Notes under the pieces: generated by a model | Told to the model about the DNA's origin: nothing | The model's database searches: none | Seen by the model: the letters and a program-made list of their open reading frames with translations, nothing else | Shown here: positions 21,561 through 46,012 of the stretch, piece after piece | Layout: each line of letters begins with the position of its first letter | How positions within the stretch are numbered: position 1 is the first letter of the stretch | Source: an uncultured virus (IMG/VR IMGVR_UViG_3300028844_003150) | Taxonomy: Duplodnaviria; Heunggongvirae; Uroviricota; Caudoviricetes | Direction: 5' to 3' (one strand) | Virus record (IMG/VR): IMGVR_UViG_3300028844_003150 | Span: 1-64,000 of that record | Length of the DNA: 64,000 bases | Position numbers and translations under genes: made by a program

Positions 21561-21569
21561 GGCAAGGGT

Positions 21570-21590
21570 CCCCGGATCGAGAGATCCGGG
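21570..21590 (+). terminator. Hairpin after the 283-aa gene
   Basis: CCCCGGATC-GAGA-GATCCGGGG with a GNRA loop. Confidence 0.55.
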
Positions 21591-21630
21591 GGCTTAATCC
21601 TTCACGGCACCGGGGTACAGTGGGGTCTGA

Positions 21631-21952
21631 AATGTACGATTGTATGTACGACCATTTTTTAGACCCTAAAGCATTGATCCATAAAGCAAAAGCACCCTAG
21701 TTTGTACGATCCAAACACCCCTTCTATAGGTGGAGTACGTATTAGAGGGTGTGCGGGGGGCCTCTAGTACTACTAATACGTACCTTTATAAACCAATAGG
21801 TATAGTAGTACAGTAGTACAAATCAGTCCCTTCTGCTTTATAAATCAACAAGTTGCTGATGTACGATCATCAGTACTTGTACGATCGTACATTTTCTCGA
21901 TGATCGTACAAATGTACTACCATTGTACGATCATCATTTTCACGGTAGTACA
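21631..21952. other. Putative replication origin (GTAC/TGTACGAT iteron-like cluster with IHF sites)
   Basis: 16 GTAC in ~320 bp of non-coding DNA; IHF match AATCAACAAGTTG at 21843-21855; upstream of the primase-helicase. Confidence 0.6.
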
Positions 21953-22595: not shown

Positions 22596-22636
22596 ACTGA
22601 GCGCTCACAAAAACACAACCCGCCGAGGGAGGCCCC

Positions 22637-24934
22637 ATGGCATGGAAGACCAAGGACGGTGAGCTGTCCAGCTCACTGCTGCTACCTATTAATGACCCGA
22701 TTGAAGATTACATCACCGTCCTACGCTCTAATAAGCCATGTAATAAGACGATAAAAATCGACAAGGAAGGCAACTGGGAAGTATCTAGCTACCAGAAGCA
22801 TTACCAATTTCAATTCTACAAGCTGCCTATCACGACTATTGAGCAGCTGCTTGTAGATATGGAGCAACTAAGAAGATGTAGTTATTACTTCTTCGTGTAT
22901 GGCGCACCAACCCCTTATGCGGTTGAGCATGGAGATACCGATCTCTTAAAGCGCCGATCTGTTTCTCGGGAGGATCAGCCTGCAACGTTGATCGCAAGAG
23001 CTGCCTCCCTCATTGTGTTTGATATCGACGCACTGATCCTTCCGGGACTCACCTATGATGAAGCAGGAGCCAGAGAAGTAGTTAAAGTATTGGTTAAGCG
23101 TGGTCTCACGCAACTTGAGAACACCAAACTTATCTACTACTGGACTTCGAAAGCAGGCAAGATTCCTAACCAAGCCAATATCCGTATCATTGGCATCTGT
23201 GAAAGTGCCGCTACGCTGGAGACCATCAAGGCATGGGCTTCTACCAGTGGGATTGTAGACGCCAAGATCTATGACCCTCAACAACCTATTTATATATCTG
23301 ATCCTGTAATTACTCCTAGAGCCAAGTGTCCAATCAAACAGGAAGATCGCATTGGCATGATAGATGGTGAGTACGAGGAAATAGCTGAACTCCCCAAGAT
23401 CAAGTTCGAACAGCAGGAAAGTGCACAAACACCGGACGACCCCAAGGATGACGTAATCCTTGCCAAGCTATATGAACATGGCTATGTGAAATCCAAGCTC
23501 AACCCCGGCAAGTACGACATCACCTGTCCATGGGTACATGAACATACCAATGAAACTGATTCAGGCACTGTATTCATGCTGCCTAATTACAGTGGATTTT
23601 CACAACACGCATTCCGCTGTCAACATGAGCACTGCGCGAATCGTAACTTGGCTGACCTGCAGGCAGCACTGGATATCAACCTAGACGTAGATGATGCCGA
23701 GTTCATAACAGAAGCGAAAGATGATGATGGATCAGCTGATGCCTTGGTACGACGTTACATATATCACAAGGACGCTGATCGCTTTTATGACTTGGTGACA
23801 GGTCAGGTTCTGAAGATCGAATCCATAAACAGGACGTACGCGCACATACACATGCGCCCTTTGGCTACTACACTCATGTTCAGACGTCCTGATCTGATAA
23901 AAGCAGACAACATGGCGTACATACCGGGACAACCACGCATCACAACGTGGAATGGACTGGTAATCATCAACATGTGGAAGGACGAGGTACACGTAACACC
24001 TGTTAAAGGAGATCCCAAACCATGGCTAGATCATTTGTCCTACTTGATGGACGAGAACGATTCAAAGCACTTTCTAAGCTGGGCAGCGTACACGCTGCAG
24101 AATCAGGGAACAAAGATCAATCATGCGTTGCTGATAGGCGGACCACCGAGGATAGGAAAGGACACGCTTTTAGAGCCGCTCAAGCGCAGCTTAGGTTCTT
24201 ACAACGTATCCGAGCCGTCTGCTGAAGAGCTGAAGGAAACATATACTAATTACCTGCACCATACGAAACTTGTAGTTTTTCAGGAATGCCAGAACTTTGA
24301 CAAACTCAACATTGAAAACAAGCTCAAGCCAATGCTCGCAGCACCTCCTAGCTCATTACGGGTACGTATGTTTGGGCAAGGATTTTACGAAACACCTAAT
24401 CTCGTGCAAGCGGTGTTCATGTCCAATCACCGTAACGCACTTAAAATTTCGCGTGGTGATGGACGTTACTACACCATCTGGTGCGATGTAGAGAAGAAGG
24501 AAGAAGCCTATTACATCAACCTGTATAAATGGCTGGAAGACGAAGGTGGACTGGCTATTGTGGTTGACTATCTATTGAATTATGACGTATCACAATTCAA
24601 TCCGAAAGCATTACCACCTACCAATGCGTATAAAGAACTTATTACAGAATTAGGGTCTACAGATCTTGAAATGGTATTGAAGGAGTCGATTGAACATGGA
24701 CAACCACCATTCCACAAAGATATAGTTAAACCATCAGATCTGATAAAACATCAAGGCTGGGAAGGCGTAACAACAAAGAAACTTTCTAATGCGTTCGACT
24801 CACTGGGATGTCTACCCCGTACAGTACGGGATACAAATGGCAAACGTACATCACACAGCTTCTGGGCTATACGCAACGTAAGAAAATGGCGTAAGAGCAA
24901 GCCCATCCGCTGGTTGGAGGCTTACAGAAAATGA
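22637..24934 (+). CDS. DNA primase-helicase (primase N-terminus, Zn finger, SF3/D5-like P-loop helicase)
   Basis: VFDID primase motif; CPWVHEHT...FRCQHEHC Zn finger; KINHALLIGGPPRIGKDT Walker A; FMSNH; GRY. Confidence 0.85.
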   Translation: MAWKTKDGELSSSLLLPINDPIEDYITVLRSNKPCNKTIKIDKEGNWEVSSYQKHYQFQFYKLPITTIEQLLVDMEQLRRCSYYFFVYGAPTPYAVEHGDTDLLKRRSVSREDQPATLIARAASLIVFDIDALILPGLTYDEAGAREVVKVLVKRGLTQLENTKLIYYWTSKAGKIPNQANIRIIGICESAATLETIKAWASTSGIVDAKIYDPQQPIYISDPVITPRAKCPIKQEDRIGMIDGEYEEIAELPKIKFEQQESAQTPDDPKDDVILAKLYEHGYVKSKLNPGKYDITCPWVHEHTNETDSGTVFMLPNYSGFSQHAFRCQHEHCANRNLADLQAALDINLDVDDAEFITEAKDDDGSADALVRRYIYHKDADRFYDLVTGQVLKIESINRTYAHIHMRPLATTLMFRRPDLIKADNMAYIPGQPRITTWNGLVIINMWKDEVHVTPVKGDPKPWLDHLSYLMDENDSKHFLSWAAYTLQNQGTKINHALLIGGPPRIGKDTLLEPLKRSLGSYNVSEPSAEELKETYTNYLHHTKLVVFQECQNFDKLNIENKLKPMLAAPPSSLRVRMFGQGFYETPNLVQAVFMSNHRNALKISRGDGRYYTIWCDVEKKEEAYYINLYKWLEDEGGLAIVVDYLLNYDVSQFNPKALPPTNAYKELITELGSTDLEMVLKESIEHGQPPFHKDIVKPSDLIKHQGWEGVTTKKLSNAFDSLGCLPRTVRDTNGKRTSHSFWAIRNVRKWRKSKPIRWLEAYRK

Positions 24935-25099
24935 TTAAACAACACCCAATGCCCGAACGTCCGCAATACCCGGAAGAAGATAACTTCAGTGACCGTGATA
25001 ATTGCGGTGAAACCTGCGTCATCTTCTCATTCGCACTGTTTGGAATAATAGGTGCAGCACTAGGAGCACTGGCAACCTATTTCATAATGAGGTAATAAC

Positions 25100-25342
25100 A
25101 TGGGTGACATGGCTGATTGGTGCCTAGAGATGGCACTCATGTATGACGACCATCTTGATTTCATATCCCGTCGCAAGATAGAACAACACATCTGGACTAC
25201 CAAGGAAGGACAGGAAGTACATGTCACGAAGATGACAACGCAACATCTAATAAATACAATACTAATGATCGAAGAGGGGAGATCCAACCATGACAAAACG
25301 TGGATACAAATCCTACAAACCGAGCTTGACTCTAGGTTGTGA
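25100..25342 (+). CDS. Small hypothetical protein
   Basis: GAGG RBS; MGDMAD and WTTKEG....V.KMTTQHLINT motif common in phage proteins. Confidence 0.6.
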   Translation: MGDMADWCLEMALMYDDHLDFISRRKIEQHIWTTKEGQEVHVTKMTTQHLINTILMIEEGRSNHDKTWIQILQTELDSRL

Positions 25343-25452
25343 CATATTACTGGCTGCAGTAGTGATATTCGGAATACTTCTGTTAATGGTCTATGCAGAA
25401 GAATTCGTAGCAGCATTGTGTGAAATAACTGGATGCGAGGAAACATCAAGCA

Positions 25453-25734
25453 ATGGAAGAACTGACTGATCCGCAAAGTAACGAAAAAATAAGTAGCCTT
25501 GCACGCCGGGTAAATGACATGTCTCCGAATGAAGAACCTGTAGATAAAGACAAAGTACGTGCTTGCCGGGAAGAGTATGAGAAATTTGCTAACTTCCATG
25601 GAGCAAGACCAAAGAAGTATGTAACTGATCCAGAGTTGTTCAGACAATTCATATCCAAGCAATATGACTTGAATACCCGTGCTGCTGCCAAGTTATGGTT
25701 AAAGCAGATGGGAGTGACGATAGAATTACCATAG
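25453..25734 (+). CDS. Hypothetical protein
   Basis: 93-aa ORF in the plus-strand operon. Confidence 0.5.
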   Translation: MEELTDPQSNEKISSLARRVNDMSPNEEPVDKDKVRACREEYEKFANFHGARPKKYVTDPELFRQFISKQYDLNTRAAAKLWLKQMGVTIELP

Positions 25735-25738
25735 CTTA

Positions 25739-26008
25739 TGGCAACGTAGATTACCTCCCTAATCTACGTGCTGCACTGACGTTGTGTGGGCATGACGCAG
25801 TGCAGCTGCCACCTAATTCCCGTGTAAATATAGTACCTCCGTTATCGCAATAGGCCTCCCTGCTAATACGCGAGCTTACATATCACTGCACGGGATCTTA
25901 ATAGCACGAGGCACAATAATGGGTGGTGAGCTGCAGCATCATTACACAAGATGTCCTCGATGCTGCCTCGTGTGATAGTAGTTTGCTGTAAGGACATCAT
26001 CTGCAGCA
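25739..26008 (+). ncRNA. Candidate structured non-coding RNA with CCUCC loops
   Basis: Intergenic ~290 bp with nested perfect stems; G-U pairs favour the plus strand (see findings). Confidence 0.65.
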
Positions 26009-26024
26009 TAGTTATGGAAACGAC

Positions 26025-26219
26025 ATGAACTTACTTGATTACGAAAAACGTATTACTGAATTGGAACGAGAAGTAGCGAACCTGAAACTGGATAAGATAG
26101 AAGTTCAGAGCCAACTGAACATGCTATCAATGCTCGTGTCATGGATGAAACGAAAAACAGTATGGGAAGCAATCTGTGATGACTATCCATGGCTGAAGGA
26201 ATACAACGATGGCAGCTAA
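26025..26219 (+). CDS. Small coiled-coil protein
   Basis: 64-aa ORF directly after the structured RNA. Confidence 0.5.
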   Translation: MNLLDYEKRITELEREVANLKLDKIEVQSQLNMLSMLVSWMKRKTVWEAICDDYPWLKEYNDGS

Positions 26220-26493
26220 GAAAGGCGACCCATGCAAGCATTGCGGTAAACCTGTAGAGCAGAATCAGGCTCATATATGTAACCACTGTAAGAATTATCC
26301 CGAACGACGTAACGACGAAACTATCAAACTGTATAACCAGTTTGTATTACCAAGGAAAAAACAATGGCGACTAACACACTAGATATCCAGCAACGCATCA
26401 TGCAGTTTCAGATAGATCTCTGGTGCGAATATAACTACATGAATTCTGATGACCTGACAGATATAGATAAACAAATCTATAACCTGTTGGGTC

Positions 26494-26802
26494 ATGCTAT
26501 GGCTGCACGAGTTGCTGATCGTAACAGACAGGGAAGTGACGACAGTGAAGAGCACTAGGAAAACTGCCACTGTGACCCGTGAAGGCGTAGAGATTGAAGT
26601 TGACTATACTTATTATCCCGCTTCCCATGGAGCAAGGGAGAAAGGTAGTGGGGTACAACTGGAACCTGATGAACCAGCTACTGTAGAAATAAACGAGATG
26701 ACCATACAGGCTATCGACGTAACCGCATTATTGGTGGATTATGAAGAAGACGTTATGGAGGAGGTTCTGGCGATGGGAGATGAGAAGGATGGGGGTTACT
26801 AA
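26494..26802 (+). CDS. Hypothetical acidic protein (true start probably downstream)
   Basis: VDYTYYPA...LEPDEP..VEI motif seen in phage hypothetical proteins. Confidence 0.5.
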   Translation: MLWLHELLIVTDREVTTVKSTRKTATVTREGVEIEVDYTYYPASHGAREKGSGVQLEPDEPATVEINEMTIQAIDVTALLVDYEEDVMEEVLAMGDEKDGGY

Positions 26803-27588
26803 GTGTTTTCGCATTTGTGGTTACGGACTAGGTGACTACCCAACTGTATTCATACCTGAACGTACTGTCTTTTTTAGCTGGATATGGTGCCGCTATTACG
26901 ATAAGAATGGTGGACTCGTATTCTTCACTACATTAAATGAAGCAGAAGGATTTCTGCATAAAAAAATGGGTGTAGGTGAAGTCGTATCAAAGAAAGTAAC
27001 TGATAAGGAGTTCATGGCATGAAGTTATCAGATGAGTGGTTCCGTAGCACGCAGATCCATGAAAAACATAAAGATGTCTATGACATCGGTTTCTATAGTG
27101 GAATGCAAGCTGCCATGAATCTCATTGTAGCAAAAGGCAGCGTAGAATCCGCTGAAATAATTCGGCAGGAAATTGCACGCGACACGGATAAAGACCCATG
27201 AAAGTAAAAGAAGCCATAATAGCGTTACAAAAGATGCATCCTGATGCTGAAATAGTAATACCACCGAGTGATAAGCATGGAGCATTTGTACGACTCACTA
27301 AAATAAATTCAGCTCTGCATATCCCAGCTTACTCCATAGAAGAATCAGCAGCCTGCTTGGATGAGAAAGCTCCAATCTGCGTTGTATTTGAAGGTGAGTC
27401 ATGCTCGGACTAGAAGACTACCAATCACTATTATTTACCCTGAAGGAAGACCCAGAAGCAACAGCAGCATTACTACGGCTTTGGTCGCACCTGTGTAATA
27501 CAGAGACTGCCCTGATCGAGGCTGAAGAAGAGCTGAAATGCTATACAAATGCCATCGACAGGGCATTAGCAAGAAAGTCAATAACCAG

Positions 27589-27617
27589 TTGACCCCCACA
27601 ATACTCGTGTGGATAAT
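27589..27617 (+). promoter_or_regulatory. Sigma70-type promoter with an internal inverted repeat (putative operator)
   Basis: TTGACC-N17-GATAAT, with CCACA-N7-TGTGG in the spacer. Confidence 0.65.
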
Positions 27618-27625
27618 AGCCCCAC

Positions 27626-27811
27626 ATGATACGCATCAATATAACGATCACCGAGCCATTGCTCACACGCCTCGACGCCGAGGTAAACTTTCACGAAACC
27701 AGCCGTTCTGAATTACTCAGAACCATCCTGCAGGAACGGTATAACCGTATGCCAAAGCAAGGATTCGGTTCACTCACAAAAGAAGAATTAAAGAGGTGGC
27801 AGGATGATTGA
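27626..27811 (+). CDS. Ribbon-helix-helix (CopG/MetJ-like) regulator
   Basis: RINITITEPLLTRLD......SRSELLRTIL pattern. Confidence 0.8.
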   Translation: MIRINITITEPLLTRLDAEVNFHETSRSELLRTILQERYNRMPKQGFGSLTKEELKRWQDD

Positions 27812-42824: not shown

Positions 42825-43046
42825 ATGATGACACCCGAGGAACTTAGGCAGCGCATCGTTGACCACGCAGTTGCTGATGATAAAGATCACCAGACAATTG
42901 TTCAGGTTATGGACCAATTTGTTATCGATCACCCCGACGGCGACTTTGCAGCCATCCGCAGACTTGTGGTCAATCATGCGGAAACTACTGATGCGAGTCA
43001 CCAGCGGCTGGTCAAAGCACTGGACAGGCTCCTAGAACAACAGTGA
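42825..43046 (+). CDS. Small helical protein, translationally coupled to the glutaminase
   Basis: AGGAG RBS; GTGA overlap with the next gene. Confidence 0.65.
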   Translation: MMTPEELRQRIVDHAVADDKDHQTIVQVMDQFVIDHPDGDFAAIRRLVVNHAETTDASHQRLVKALDRLLEQQ

Positions 43047-43987
43047 AATTTGACAGCCCAGTTTTCAAAGGAATGCTGGAGGACGCGTTCGAGCTGGGAC
43101 ATGGTATCACTGGCGGCAAGGTTGCTGACTATATCCCGGCATTGGCCCTCGCTAACCCGGAAGACTGGGCCTTTACAATACATCCATTGATAGATGCGCC
43201 ACCGCAAAACTTCGGTCAAGTGGATGAATACTTTACGATACAGAGTATTTCTAAAACATTTTCTTATTCGCTGGCGCTAACGGAAGTGGGAAGAGATGAG
43301 GTGCATAACCGAGTGGGCGCTGAGCCCAGTGGCCAAGCGTTCAATGGTATTGCTCTGATGATTGACGGTCGCCCACACAATCCGATGGTCAACGCCGGTG
43401 CCATTGCAGTCACAGGTTGTTTGCATGACCGTTTCGGAAGCAGTGCAGTAGATGAGGTGGTCAGTTTGTTTTCAGAGTTTGCTGATGAGCAGCTGGTAAT
43501 AGACCAGAATGTCTATGAAAGTGAGCTTTCGAGTGGGCACGTTAACCTCGCCATCGCTCATCTGCTAAGAGCCAAGGGGGTCCTTACGACGGACCCCCTA
43601 AAGGTAATTGAATTGTATTTTTCAATCTGCTCACTGCTGGTTAACACACGTATCCTCGCGCGCATGGGTGCAGTGTTGGGTAGAGGTGGCAAAGCAGAAG
43701 ATGGCCACTATGTTTGCGAGGTGGAAAGCGCGACCAGCGCACTGGCGCTAACTCTAAGCTGTGGGATGTACGACCGGAGCGGCACTTGGATTCGTGACAT
43801 TGGGCTGCCGACAAAAAGCGGAGTGAGTGGTGGATTGCTTTGTATTGTCCCCGGAAAGATGAGTATGGCTTTCTGGTCGCCTCCTATCGATGAATTCGGG
43901 AATACAGTTCGAGGAATGGCAGCTTGCCAAAATTTGGTGACAGACTTGGATCTTCACCTCTTTGGACCGGGTTCGATATTTGACTGA
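43043..43987 (+). CDS. glsA: Glutaminase (serine beta-lactamase-like fold)
   Basis: GKVADYIPALA, FTIQSISK catalytic SxxK, EPSG..FN, PHNPMVNAGA, CGMYD.SG, GLPTKSGVSGG, SPPID..GN. Confidence 0.95.
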   Translation: MKFDSPVFKGMLEDAFELGHGITGGKVADYIPALALANPEDWAFTIHPLIDAPPQNFGQVDEYFTIQSISKTFSYSLALTEVGRDEVHNRVGAEPSGQAFNGIALMIDGRPHNPMVNAGAIAVTGCLHDRFGSSAVDEVVSLFSEFADEQLVIDQNVYESELSSGHVNLAIAHLLRAKGVLTTDPLKVIELYFSICSLLVNTRILARMGAVLGRGGKAEDGHYVCEVESATSALALTLSCGMYDRSGTWIRDIGLPTKSGVSGGLLCIVPGKMSMAFWSPPIDEFGNTVRGMAACQNLVTDLDLHLFGPGSIFD

Positions 43988-45337: not shown

Positions 45338-46012
45338 GTGAACTCAATTGGCCCCAAGAACGATACATCTGCGAAGAAGAAAGACGGTCCATGCTCAGGC
45401 GGAGGGACATGGAAAGAGAACCAAGCGTTAAGCAAAACCGTAGAAAAATACTCAGACGCAAGCCATTGGACGGAGGAAGAAGTCCTGATCCGGTTCGAGG
45501 CGTGGATGCTTTTTGTTATAGACCGTGCAACAGCAAACTTACCGAAGCACTACAAAGCAAACATAAAAAACGACATCGATCAAGAAGCCCGCATCGCCTT
45601 GCTACTGTGTTGGCGAGACTATCAGAAGAAGAAGGCTCTATGTAAATTCACTACGTTCTCCTTCCTCCGTATCAGGGGGGCAGTCATAGATTTCTTCCGT
45701 GAGAGAAGAACCTCCGATACTCCATTCCCAAAAATAGTCTCTGTAGACTTCAGTTGCCTACTTAATGATGAAGAGGAAGCAATATCGAGAGCTGTACTGG
45801 GGGATACAATAGTAACTACAGATCTACTAATCGATTTATGTAACGCGCTCTTCGCCTTGGACCCATGGGAGAGAAAACTAATCTCTCTCCATTACACGAA
45901 AGACAGTACGTTGAAAGAAATAGGTGCTCTAGCCGACGTGACTGAAGGACGAGCCTGTCAGGTACACGCCGACGTAATAGAGAAGCTACGACTGAGCATG
46001 GATCACAGCTGA
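45338..46012 (+). CDS. Sigma70-family sigma factor, FliA/WhiG-like (regions 2 and 4)
   Basis: DIDQEARIAL, KFTTFS..RIRGAVIDFFR, L...ERKLI.LHY....TLKEIG....VTEGRACQVH. Confidence 0.85.
   Translation: MNSIGPKNDTSAKKKDGPCSGGGTWKENQALSKTVEKYSDASHWTEEEVLIRFEAWMLFVIDRATANLPKHYKANIKNDIDQEARIALLLCWRDYQKKKALCKFTTFSFLRIRGAVIDFFRERRTSDTPFPKIVSVDFSCLLNDEEEAISRAVLGDTIVTTDLLIDLCNALFALDPWERKLISLHYTKDSTLKEIGALADVTEGRACQVHADVIEKLRLSMDHS

Follow-up and report, generated by a model that had tools for sequence, protein, structure and literature searches.

The window analysed here comprises the first 64 kb of an IMG/VR virus record that is 67,281 bp long and has direct terminal repeats. Its plus-strand genes span ~20.7 to 46 kb, and the structural genes lie on the minus strand. 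The plus-strand block includes a primase, an exonuclease, a helicase, a DNA polymerase, rIIA-like proteins, a glutaminase and a sigma-factor-like protein. The glutaminase gene (Pfam PF04960, E 8e-93; 43043-43987) and the gene for the sigma-70-like protein (regions 2 and 4; 45338-46012) are found at the end of this block. The primase gene occupies 22637-24934 on the plus strand, with its start codon at 22637. The gap under study, 25735-26024 (290 nt), comes after the primase gene and before those for the exonuclease, helicase and polymerase, and separates two plus-strand genes of 93 and 64 aa. It is the second largest gap between adjacent plus-strand genes on a provisional gene map, from which a spurious 52-aa ORF (25695-25853) was excluded.

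The upstream gene (25453-25734, plus strand, 93 aa) has no PHROG or Pfam match, and the downstream gene (26025-26219, plus strand, 64 aa) belongs to no known family. Both proteins are ORFans: among 5.8 billion clusters only variants of 94% (upstream) and 98% (downstream) identity were found, on one 5,325-nt contig. Neighbouring ORFs of 54-93 aa also lack a Pfam or PHROG family, except for three function-unknown PHROG matches of an 80-aa ORF. In a diverged variant of the locus, called X6 and described below, 13 of the 16 differences in the upstream gene fall at third codon positions. The gene is therefore a real coding sequence, and its third positions (13 changed in 93) provide a near-neutral yardstick. 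Six of the seven listed X6 differences in the downstream gene are also at third positions.

No close relative was found among cultured phages. With a 1-kb query, blastn returned no match in 50,697 phage records. Identity of the terminase to its counterparts in Aeromonas phage phiA008 and Pseudomonas phage KPP25 does not exceed 40%, and the primase matches 235 records, every one at less than 60% identity. The region is partly present in 20 of 22 listed sequencing runs, from 9 studies; these runs are mostly labelled as marine, marine-sediment or mollusc metagenomes, and a few carry no organism label. The largest gap between plus-strand genes, 21561-21899 (339 nt), directly precedes a DUF3223 gene and the primase. 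It holds 8 of the 17 copies of TGTACGA in the window, on both strands, and 17 copies were reached by none of 100 shuffles. The region 21561-21930 folds at z -6.0, with a strong GC hairpin at its start (about 21567-21594). By appearance, this gap looks like an origin or an operator/promoter array.

A first-pass annotation of the DNA had proposed that the 290-nt gap encodes a new multi-domain phage RNA with three exposed anti-Shine-Dalgarno loops and a kissing-loop pair. All of the stems and motifs quoted there were recovered at their positions. As plus-strand RNA the whole gap (25735-26024) folds at -102.3 kcal/mol, with z -3.79 and none of 200 shuffles as good, compared with -95.1 kcal/mol, z -2.44 and 4 of 200 shuffles as good for the minus strand. 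The plus strand is thus favoured as RNA, as had been suggested. Under DNA energy parameters the two strands fold equally well (z -4.48 and -5.22, 0 of 200 shuffles each), so that folding alone cannot separate an RNA from a DNA-level element. The gap had also been called almost fully paired; in the MFE structure 162 of 240 nt are paired, and a paired fraction is not evidence by itself. It contains nine perfect inverted 8-mer pairs against a shuffle mean of 0.59, a number reached by none of 2000 shuffles, and the nine derive from five independent perfect repeats of 8-10 bp without mismatch. The expectation that the proposed RNA would fold better than shuffled sequence was borne out for the whole gap and for domains 1 and 2, but domain 3 is borderline and the last hairpin is at chance.

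Domain 1 (25739-25811, plus strand) is a three-helix junction without unpaired junction bases, in which a 5-bp closing stem holds two hairpins. As previously described, TGGCA/TGCCA closes a 10-bp hairpin (25744-25769, loop CCTCCC) and a 9+7-bp hairpin (25770-25806). The former is a perfect inverted repeat (100% complementary) with its CCUCCC hexaloop at 25754-25759; the latter has a UGGG loop and is unchanged in X6. The G-U pairs that were said to work only on the plus strand are present, two of them in the hairpin 25770-25806. Stacked, the helices of the domain amount to 21 bp. On the plus strand the MFE is -40.5 kcal/mol, with z -7.17 and 0 of 200 shuffles as good, and 0.37 of the ensemble is in the MFE structure; the minus strand gives z -5.08, also with 0 of 200 shuffles. 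When the 67-kb genome was folded in sliding windows of 150 nt, the one over domain 1 ranked second on the plus strand. X6 has two changes in the 73 nt of the domain: one pair is kept as U-G, and the loop-closing pair is opened by the other.

Domain 2 (25818-25895, plus strand) is a long irregular hairpin of roughly 19 bp, retained in both variants. It has a 9-bp base, the pair TCCCGTGTA/TGCACGGGA that spans 25818-25895 was found as annotated, and CCUCC motifs are located at 25836-25840 and 25855-25859. The domain folds at z -3.33 on the plus strand (0 of 200 shuffles as good) and at z -2.12 on the minus strand (4 of 200). Its apex is variable, with six X6 changes besides a compensatory pair.

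The three CCTCC motifs begin at 25754, 25836 and 25855, as annotated, and read CCUCCC, CCUCCG and CCUCCC. The claim that all three are displayed in loops holds for the first only. The probability that all five CCUCC bases are unpaired in the folded ensemble is 1.00 for motif 1, but 0.001 for motif 2 and 0.09 for motif 3. There are 38 copies of CCTCC on the plus strand of the window, and the three within 106 nt here are the densest cluster; under random placement of 38 sites such a cluster has P 0.063 for one strand and 0.19 for either strand. The sequences around motifs 1 and 2 repeat each other directly over 18 nt, with 78% identity, which hints at duplication of a module. X6 has no change in any of the three CCUCC cores, and five changes within 6 nt of motif 2.

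Downstream of this, domain 3 (25902-25973, plus strand) has two alternative helices, CACGAGGCA/TGCCUCGUG and GCAGCAUC/GAUGCUGC, both of which are inverted repeats. The competing stems that had been reported here, GCAGCATC/GATGCTGC and CACGAGGCA/TGCCTCGTG, exist, as does the last hairpin (25984-26008, plus strand, 7 bp). Domain 3 folds at z -1.95 on the plus strand (8 of 200 shuffles as good, borderline) and z -2.41 on the minus strand (5 of 200). For the region of the last hairpin (25976-26024) the values are z 0.0 with 90 of 200 shuffles as good on the plus strand, and z 0.35 with 120 of 200 on the minus strand. The segment GATGTCCT at 25950-25957 is indeed complementary to AGGACATC at 25991-25998, and this had been read as a kissing-loop pair. 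Written as the proposed RNA interaction (25950-25998, plus strand), GAUGUCCU (25950-25957) is the exact complement of AGGACAUC (25991-25998), with a duplex energy of -11.0 kcal/mol. The significance given to the pair did not survive, since at least one perfect 8-nt inverted pair occurs in 36% of shuffles and a single pair is for that reason unremarkable. In the ensemble, each of the two segments is largely engaged in other pairs (unpaired probabilities 0.05 and 0.09). When the two hairpins of the first-pass annotation are enforced, 25896-26024 folds at -30.7 kcal/mol, against -36.5 for the MFE, and a loop-loop form could be competitive only with a small pseudoknot penalty. The X6 contig ends before the 3' partner of the pair.

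The edges of the gap can also pair. The segment 25728-25737 (ACCAUAGCUU), which includes the upstream stop codon, can pair with AGUUAUGG at 25690-25699 or at 26010-26017. The first copy of AGUUAUGG is inside the upstream gene and the second adjoins the downstream start. The idea of a closing helix between the stop codon and the next start was rejected as context-dependent: the probability of this helix is 0.86 in one sequence context and 0-0.26 in four others, and thus falls as far as 0.

Several known types of element were considered for the locus. The 64-kb window has no match to Rfam 15 at gathering score, 6S, pRNA and riboswitch families included, in agreement with the proposal that the RNA is of no existing Rfam family. 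Below threshold, the best matches were a minus-strand one to Dictyostelium class I RNA (22.4 bits, E 0.07) and one to IS605-orfB-I (E 0.1). Group I and group II introns and ribozymes were rejected, with no Rfam match even at E up to 10, and ARAGORN found no tRNA or tmRNA genes in the window. The IS605-orfB-I model (RF03065, TnpB omega RNA) has a weak full-length alignment to 25819-26010 on the plus strand, on three stems. Most internal parts of that model are unaligned here, however, and the adjacent genes are not TnpB-like and belong to no transposase family. This reading was also rejected, at 17.9 bits against a gathering score of 94.2 and with no tnpB gene nearby.

Coding explanations fared no better. 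Six ORFs of 17-52 aa lie in or across the gap, and the three with more than one X6 difference lack third-position bias, so that a missed small gene was rejected. An 18-codon ORF that follows a GAGG acquires a stop codon in X6, and a 1-nt deletion falls in a minus-strand ORF of 48 aa. Translational bypass at repeated UUAUGG sites was dismissed, as the copies are in different phases with no matching take-off and landing codons. Minus-strand genes behind the three GGAGG were likewise discarded, two of these being followed by 2-codon frames only. A promoter consensus scan returned 4 promoter-like sites against 4.6 expected, with a consensus that may not be that of the host, and no plus-strand terminator was found in 24800-27000. 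The one RNA library in which the region is present (X20) yielded two 151-nt contigs, 25840-25990 and 26074-26224, which document presence in the library and not transcription.

The element is confined to one phage lineage at the species level. Two further assembled contigs, one in IMG/VR (L003/L006/L017) and one from a metagenome (L004), are 100% identical over the region, and four DNA runs from two studies, besides those of the possible source sample, contain 95-96% of sampled words. Protein-guided searches for the locus recovered identical copies only (L002, L003, L004 and L006), plus L005 and L007, the latter a contig that ends inside the primase. A primase with 82% identity is encoded on a 62,966-nt contig (P0002). 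L005 is a metagenome contig with a primase 55% identical to that of this phage; it lacks the element and has other small genes, without a gap, between primase and exonuclease. The interval between these two genes (24934-27804 here, 4107-7420 in L005) is a hypervariable block of small genes, in which the two phages have in common only an RHH-like gene (27626-27811) just before the exonuclease. GTDB genome contigs held no relative of the primase and 0 matches to a 20-nt pattern. A pattern of the hairpin stem was found at 23 loci in IMG/VR, of which only L017, the L003 contig, is homologous; the other 22 were judged to be chance palindromes. Searches with a covariance model built on domain 1, in the 67-kb genome, G001 and part of L005, recovered domain 1 itself and nothing else. 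Run X7 gave no contig, and run X8 a single unrelated piece below 90% identity.

The X6 variant is the sole source of comparative evidence. It is one contig from one run, covers 25315-25974 at ~95% identity and has a depth of 4.9. The element has 14 changes in 240 nt, a lower rate than at the upstream gene's third codon positions (13 in 93; Fisher p 0.023) and a higher one than at its first and second positions (3 in 186; p 0.043). No changes are present in 25657-25752 or 25763-25833, and 8 of the 14 are in the upper part of domain 2. The first of these stretches, 96 nt without an X6 difference, runs through the final 26 codons of the upstream gene into the beginning of domain 1, and could reflect overlapping constraint or a recent recombination tract.

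The changes were also compared with the fold. In domain 2, 25834 T>C is accompanied by 25878 A>G, a compensatory pair that converts U-A to C-G. When the 13 substitutions (12 events) are placed on the MFE structure, there is this one compensatory pair, three changes keep or improve pairing through wobble, three break a pair and five are in unpaired positions. In 20,000 trials of random placement, at least one compensatory pair arose in 8.9%, three or fewer broken pairs in 8.4%, and both in 1.4%. Enforcing the domain 3 hairpin of the first-pass annotation leaves the counts of compensatory, wobble and broken changes the same, and under that fold the changes at 25762 and 25934 preserve pairing on the plus strand only. 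The X6 sequence folds at -87.7 kcal/mol, against -91.2 for the reference; random mutation sets average -79.3 (sd 5.3), and 6.7% of 1000 were as good. The covariation anticipated in homologues thus amounts to one compensatory pair, three wobble-compatible changes and a retained fold, but in one 95% variant only. These sequence comparisons suggest a modest structural constraint on the element, with each single test at p 0.02-0.09. The element itself is real, unusually well folded and moderately constrained, and it falls in no described family.

Bacterial RNAs with C-rich motifs offer the closest comparison. In the account of PMC4615179, the cuckoo/CcsR RNAs (RSs0680, alpha-r14) are alphaproteobacterial sRNAs with anti-Shine-Dalgarno-like C-rich motifs on hairpins. 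They consist there of 2-4 adjacent simple hairpins without a multiloop, display CCUCCUCCC in each loop of 9-27 nt, and are transcribed together with a small gene upstream and then processed (PMC4615179). The element resembles the RNAs so described in carrying a C-rich anti-Shine-Dalgarno-like motif on a hairpin, in repeating the hairpin-plus-motif module, and in a same-strand layout compatible with co-transcription from an upstream small gene. Because cuckoo/CcsR RNAs are made in this way according to that account (PMC4615179), co-transcription with the upstream small gene is no argument against an sRNA. The differences from the published description are in motif and architecture: the element has CCUCC(C), with a loop 1 of 6 nt, instead of CCUCCUCCC in 9-27 nt; its domain 1 is a three-helix junction; and motifs 2 and 3 share one long hairpin. 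Moreover, two of the three motifs are outside stable loops, and the host system is a marine phage. Of the Rfam matches listed at E up to 10, none was to the cuckoo/CcsR model. Membership in the family, as defined in that source, was rejected on motif, loop and architecture together with the lack of a model match.

The same source describes the principle by which C-rich loops mask ribosome-binding sites, as in the UCCC hairpins of RNAIII and in related Staphylococcus sRNAs (PMC4615179). Similar to these, the stable hairpin of the element exposes a short C-rich loop from which pairing with a G-rich ribosome-binding site could begin. It differs in having no sequence or model similarity to these RNAs and no promoter or terminator of its own that was found. 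Early mRNA of phage T7 carries RNase III sites in its intergenic gaps, as single hairpins in short gaps. Both they and the element are stable irregular hairpins between the cistrons of a phage polycistronic mRNA; the element is different in being a 290-nt array of several domains. To our knowledge, few regulatory RNAs of lytic phages have been characterised, and the literature searched gave none for a marine phage.

If the C-rich motifs act on ribosome-binding sites, the phage itself has sites of the appropriate type. GGAG, GAGG or GGAGG precedes 32 of 87 provisional genes (5 with GGAGG, 27 with GGAG or GAGG). The candidate target is the primase ribosome-binding site, AGGGAGGCC, at 22626-22634 on the plus strand. 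It forms the best duplex among the 85 start regions scored, at -14.1 kcal/mol with loop 1 and -21.6 kcal/mol with motif 3. Motif 3, GGCCUCCCU (25853-25861, plus strand), is a perfect 9-nt complement of the primase site and is unchanged in X6. Its duplex with the site was equalled by 2.7% of 300 controls with randomised flanks, a value uncorrected for three motifs. Motifs 1 and 2 were unremarkable against the same controls (88% and 63%). Pairing with the primase site is a predicted interaction, to be treated as a lead rather than a finding.

These observations accommodate several explanations. We consider it fairly probable that the gap encodes a functional plus-strand RNA structure of some kind. 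The main rival to a masking RNA is a cis-acting element of processing, stability or coupling: an intercistronic RNA whose helices would be cut by RNase III or RNase E, stabilise 3' ends or insulate translation, and in which the C-rich loops would be incidental. The position inside a run of same-strand genes, with promoter and terminator signals not above background, agrees with this reading, and so do the stacked helices of ~20 bp (21 bp in domain 1, roughly 19 bp in domain 2) that both variants retain. The stop-codon segment pairs with AGUUAUGG upstream or beside the downstream start (0.86 in one context), and the constraint data from X6 fit a cis element equally. Three to four domains over 290 nt nevertheless exceed what a cleavage site needs, the closing helix reaches only 0-0.26 in the four other contexts, and relatives do without any such element. 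On balance a cis-acting role appears rather unlikely, while far from negligible. An explanation at the DNA level, as a palindrome cluster with protein-binding sites or single-stranded DNA hairpins, for example a lagging-strand priming or replication signal to the right of an origin, is in our view quite improbable. It would account for the five independent perfect inverted repeats of 8-10 bp and for the DNA-parameter folds (z -4.48 and -5.22, 0 of 200 each), and the site between the primase and the exonuclease, helicase and polymerase genes would suit it. Against it, the G-U pairs of domain 1 and the wobble-type X6 changes at 25762 and 25934 pair only on the plus strand, which is also the strand favoured as RNA; moreover, there are no iterons or AT-rich stretch here, and the gap 21561-21899 looks like a better origin or operator.

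The gap might also hold no function at all, as a recent insertion, or what is left of one after decay, among the small accessory genes of a hypervariable block. Its self-complementarity would then stem from the inserted sequence, and its low divergence from a recent recombination tract. The restriction of the element and both flanking genes to one species-level lineage is as expected for such an insertion, and the interval between primase and exonuclease differs in the relative with the 55%-identical primase. The unchanged 96-nt stretch (25657-25752), which spans the gene end and the start of the element, resembles a recombination tract, and near-identical 11-mers (10 of 11 bases) occur at the edges of the gap, at 25736-25746 and 26012-26022. 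A direct repeat of 10/11, however, is expected about once by chance in 551 nt by our own estimate. The divergence below that of synonymous-type sites (p 0.023), with one compensatory pair and few broken ones, speaks against this reading, as do the z of -7.2 and the single dominant fold of domain 1. The element is also preserved at 100% identity in two further contigs, and 95-96% of its sampled words are present in four further DNA runs from two studies. We regard a functionless origin as unlikely.

The best explanation overall, which we favour tentatively, is a lineage-specific folded plus-strand RNA module that is co-transcribed with its operon and masks ribosome-binding sites. Masking as the mode of action is possible, if doubtful, and is suggested by the complementarity of the motifs. 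The transcription, processing, target and effect of the module are all conjectural in what follows. The module would be transcribed within the long plus-strand early/replication operon, presumably without a promoter of its own. Domain 1, the very stable three-helix junction that forms the core of the module, would keep the CCUCCC hexaloop permanently open, and domain 2 would hold the two further CCUCC motifs in the weak upper part of its long irregular hairpin. The C-rich motifs may then pair with G-rich ribosome-binding sites, either inside the polycistronic RNA or after excision of the module. Such pairing would damp translation, with the phage's own primase site (AGGGAGGCC), 3.1 kb upstream, as the top candidate. 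A fuller version, in which a ~270-nt multi-domain phage RNA of no described family presents copies of the 16S rRNA 3' end ((A)CCUCC(C)) on a rigid three-helix scaffold, captures G-rich sites, its own primase first, to time the translation of replication genes, and switches its 3' domain between nested and loop-loop forms, seems to us very unlikely to hold in every part.

At present the element is a well-folded singleton with modest evidence of constraint, and not yet a discovery. If the module regulates translation at the phage's own primase site, it would represent a compact, RNA-based form of timing in a phage replication operon, and a new RNA family.
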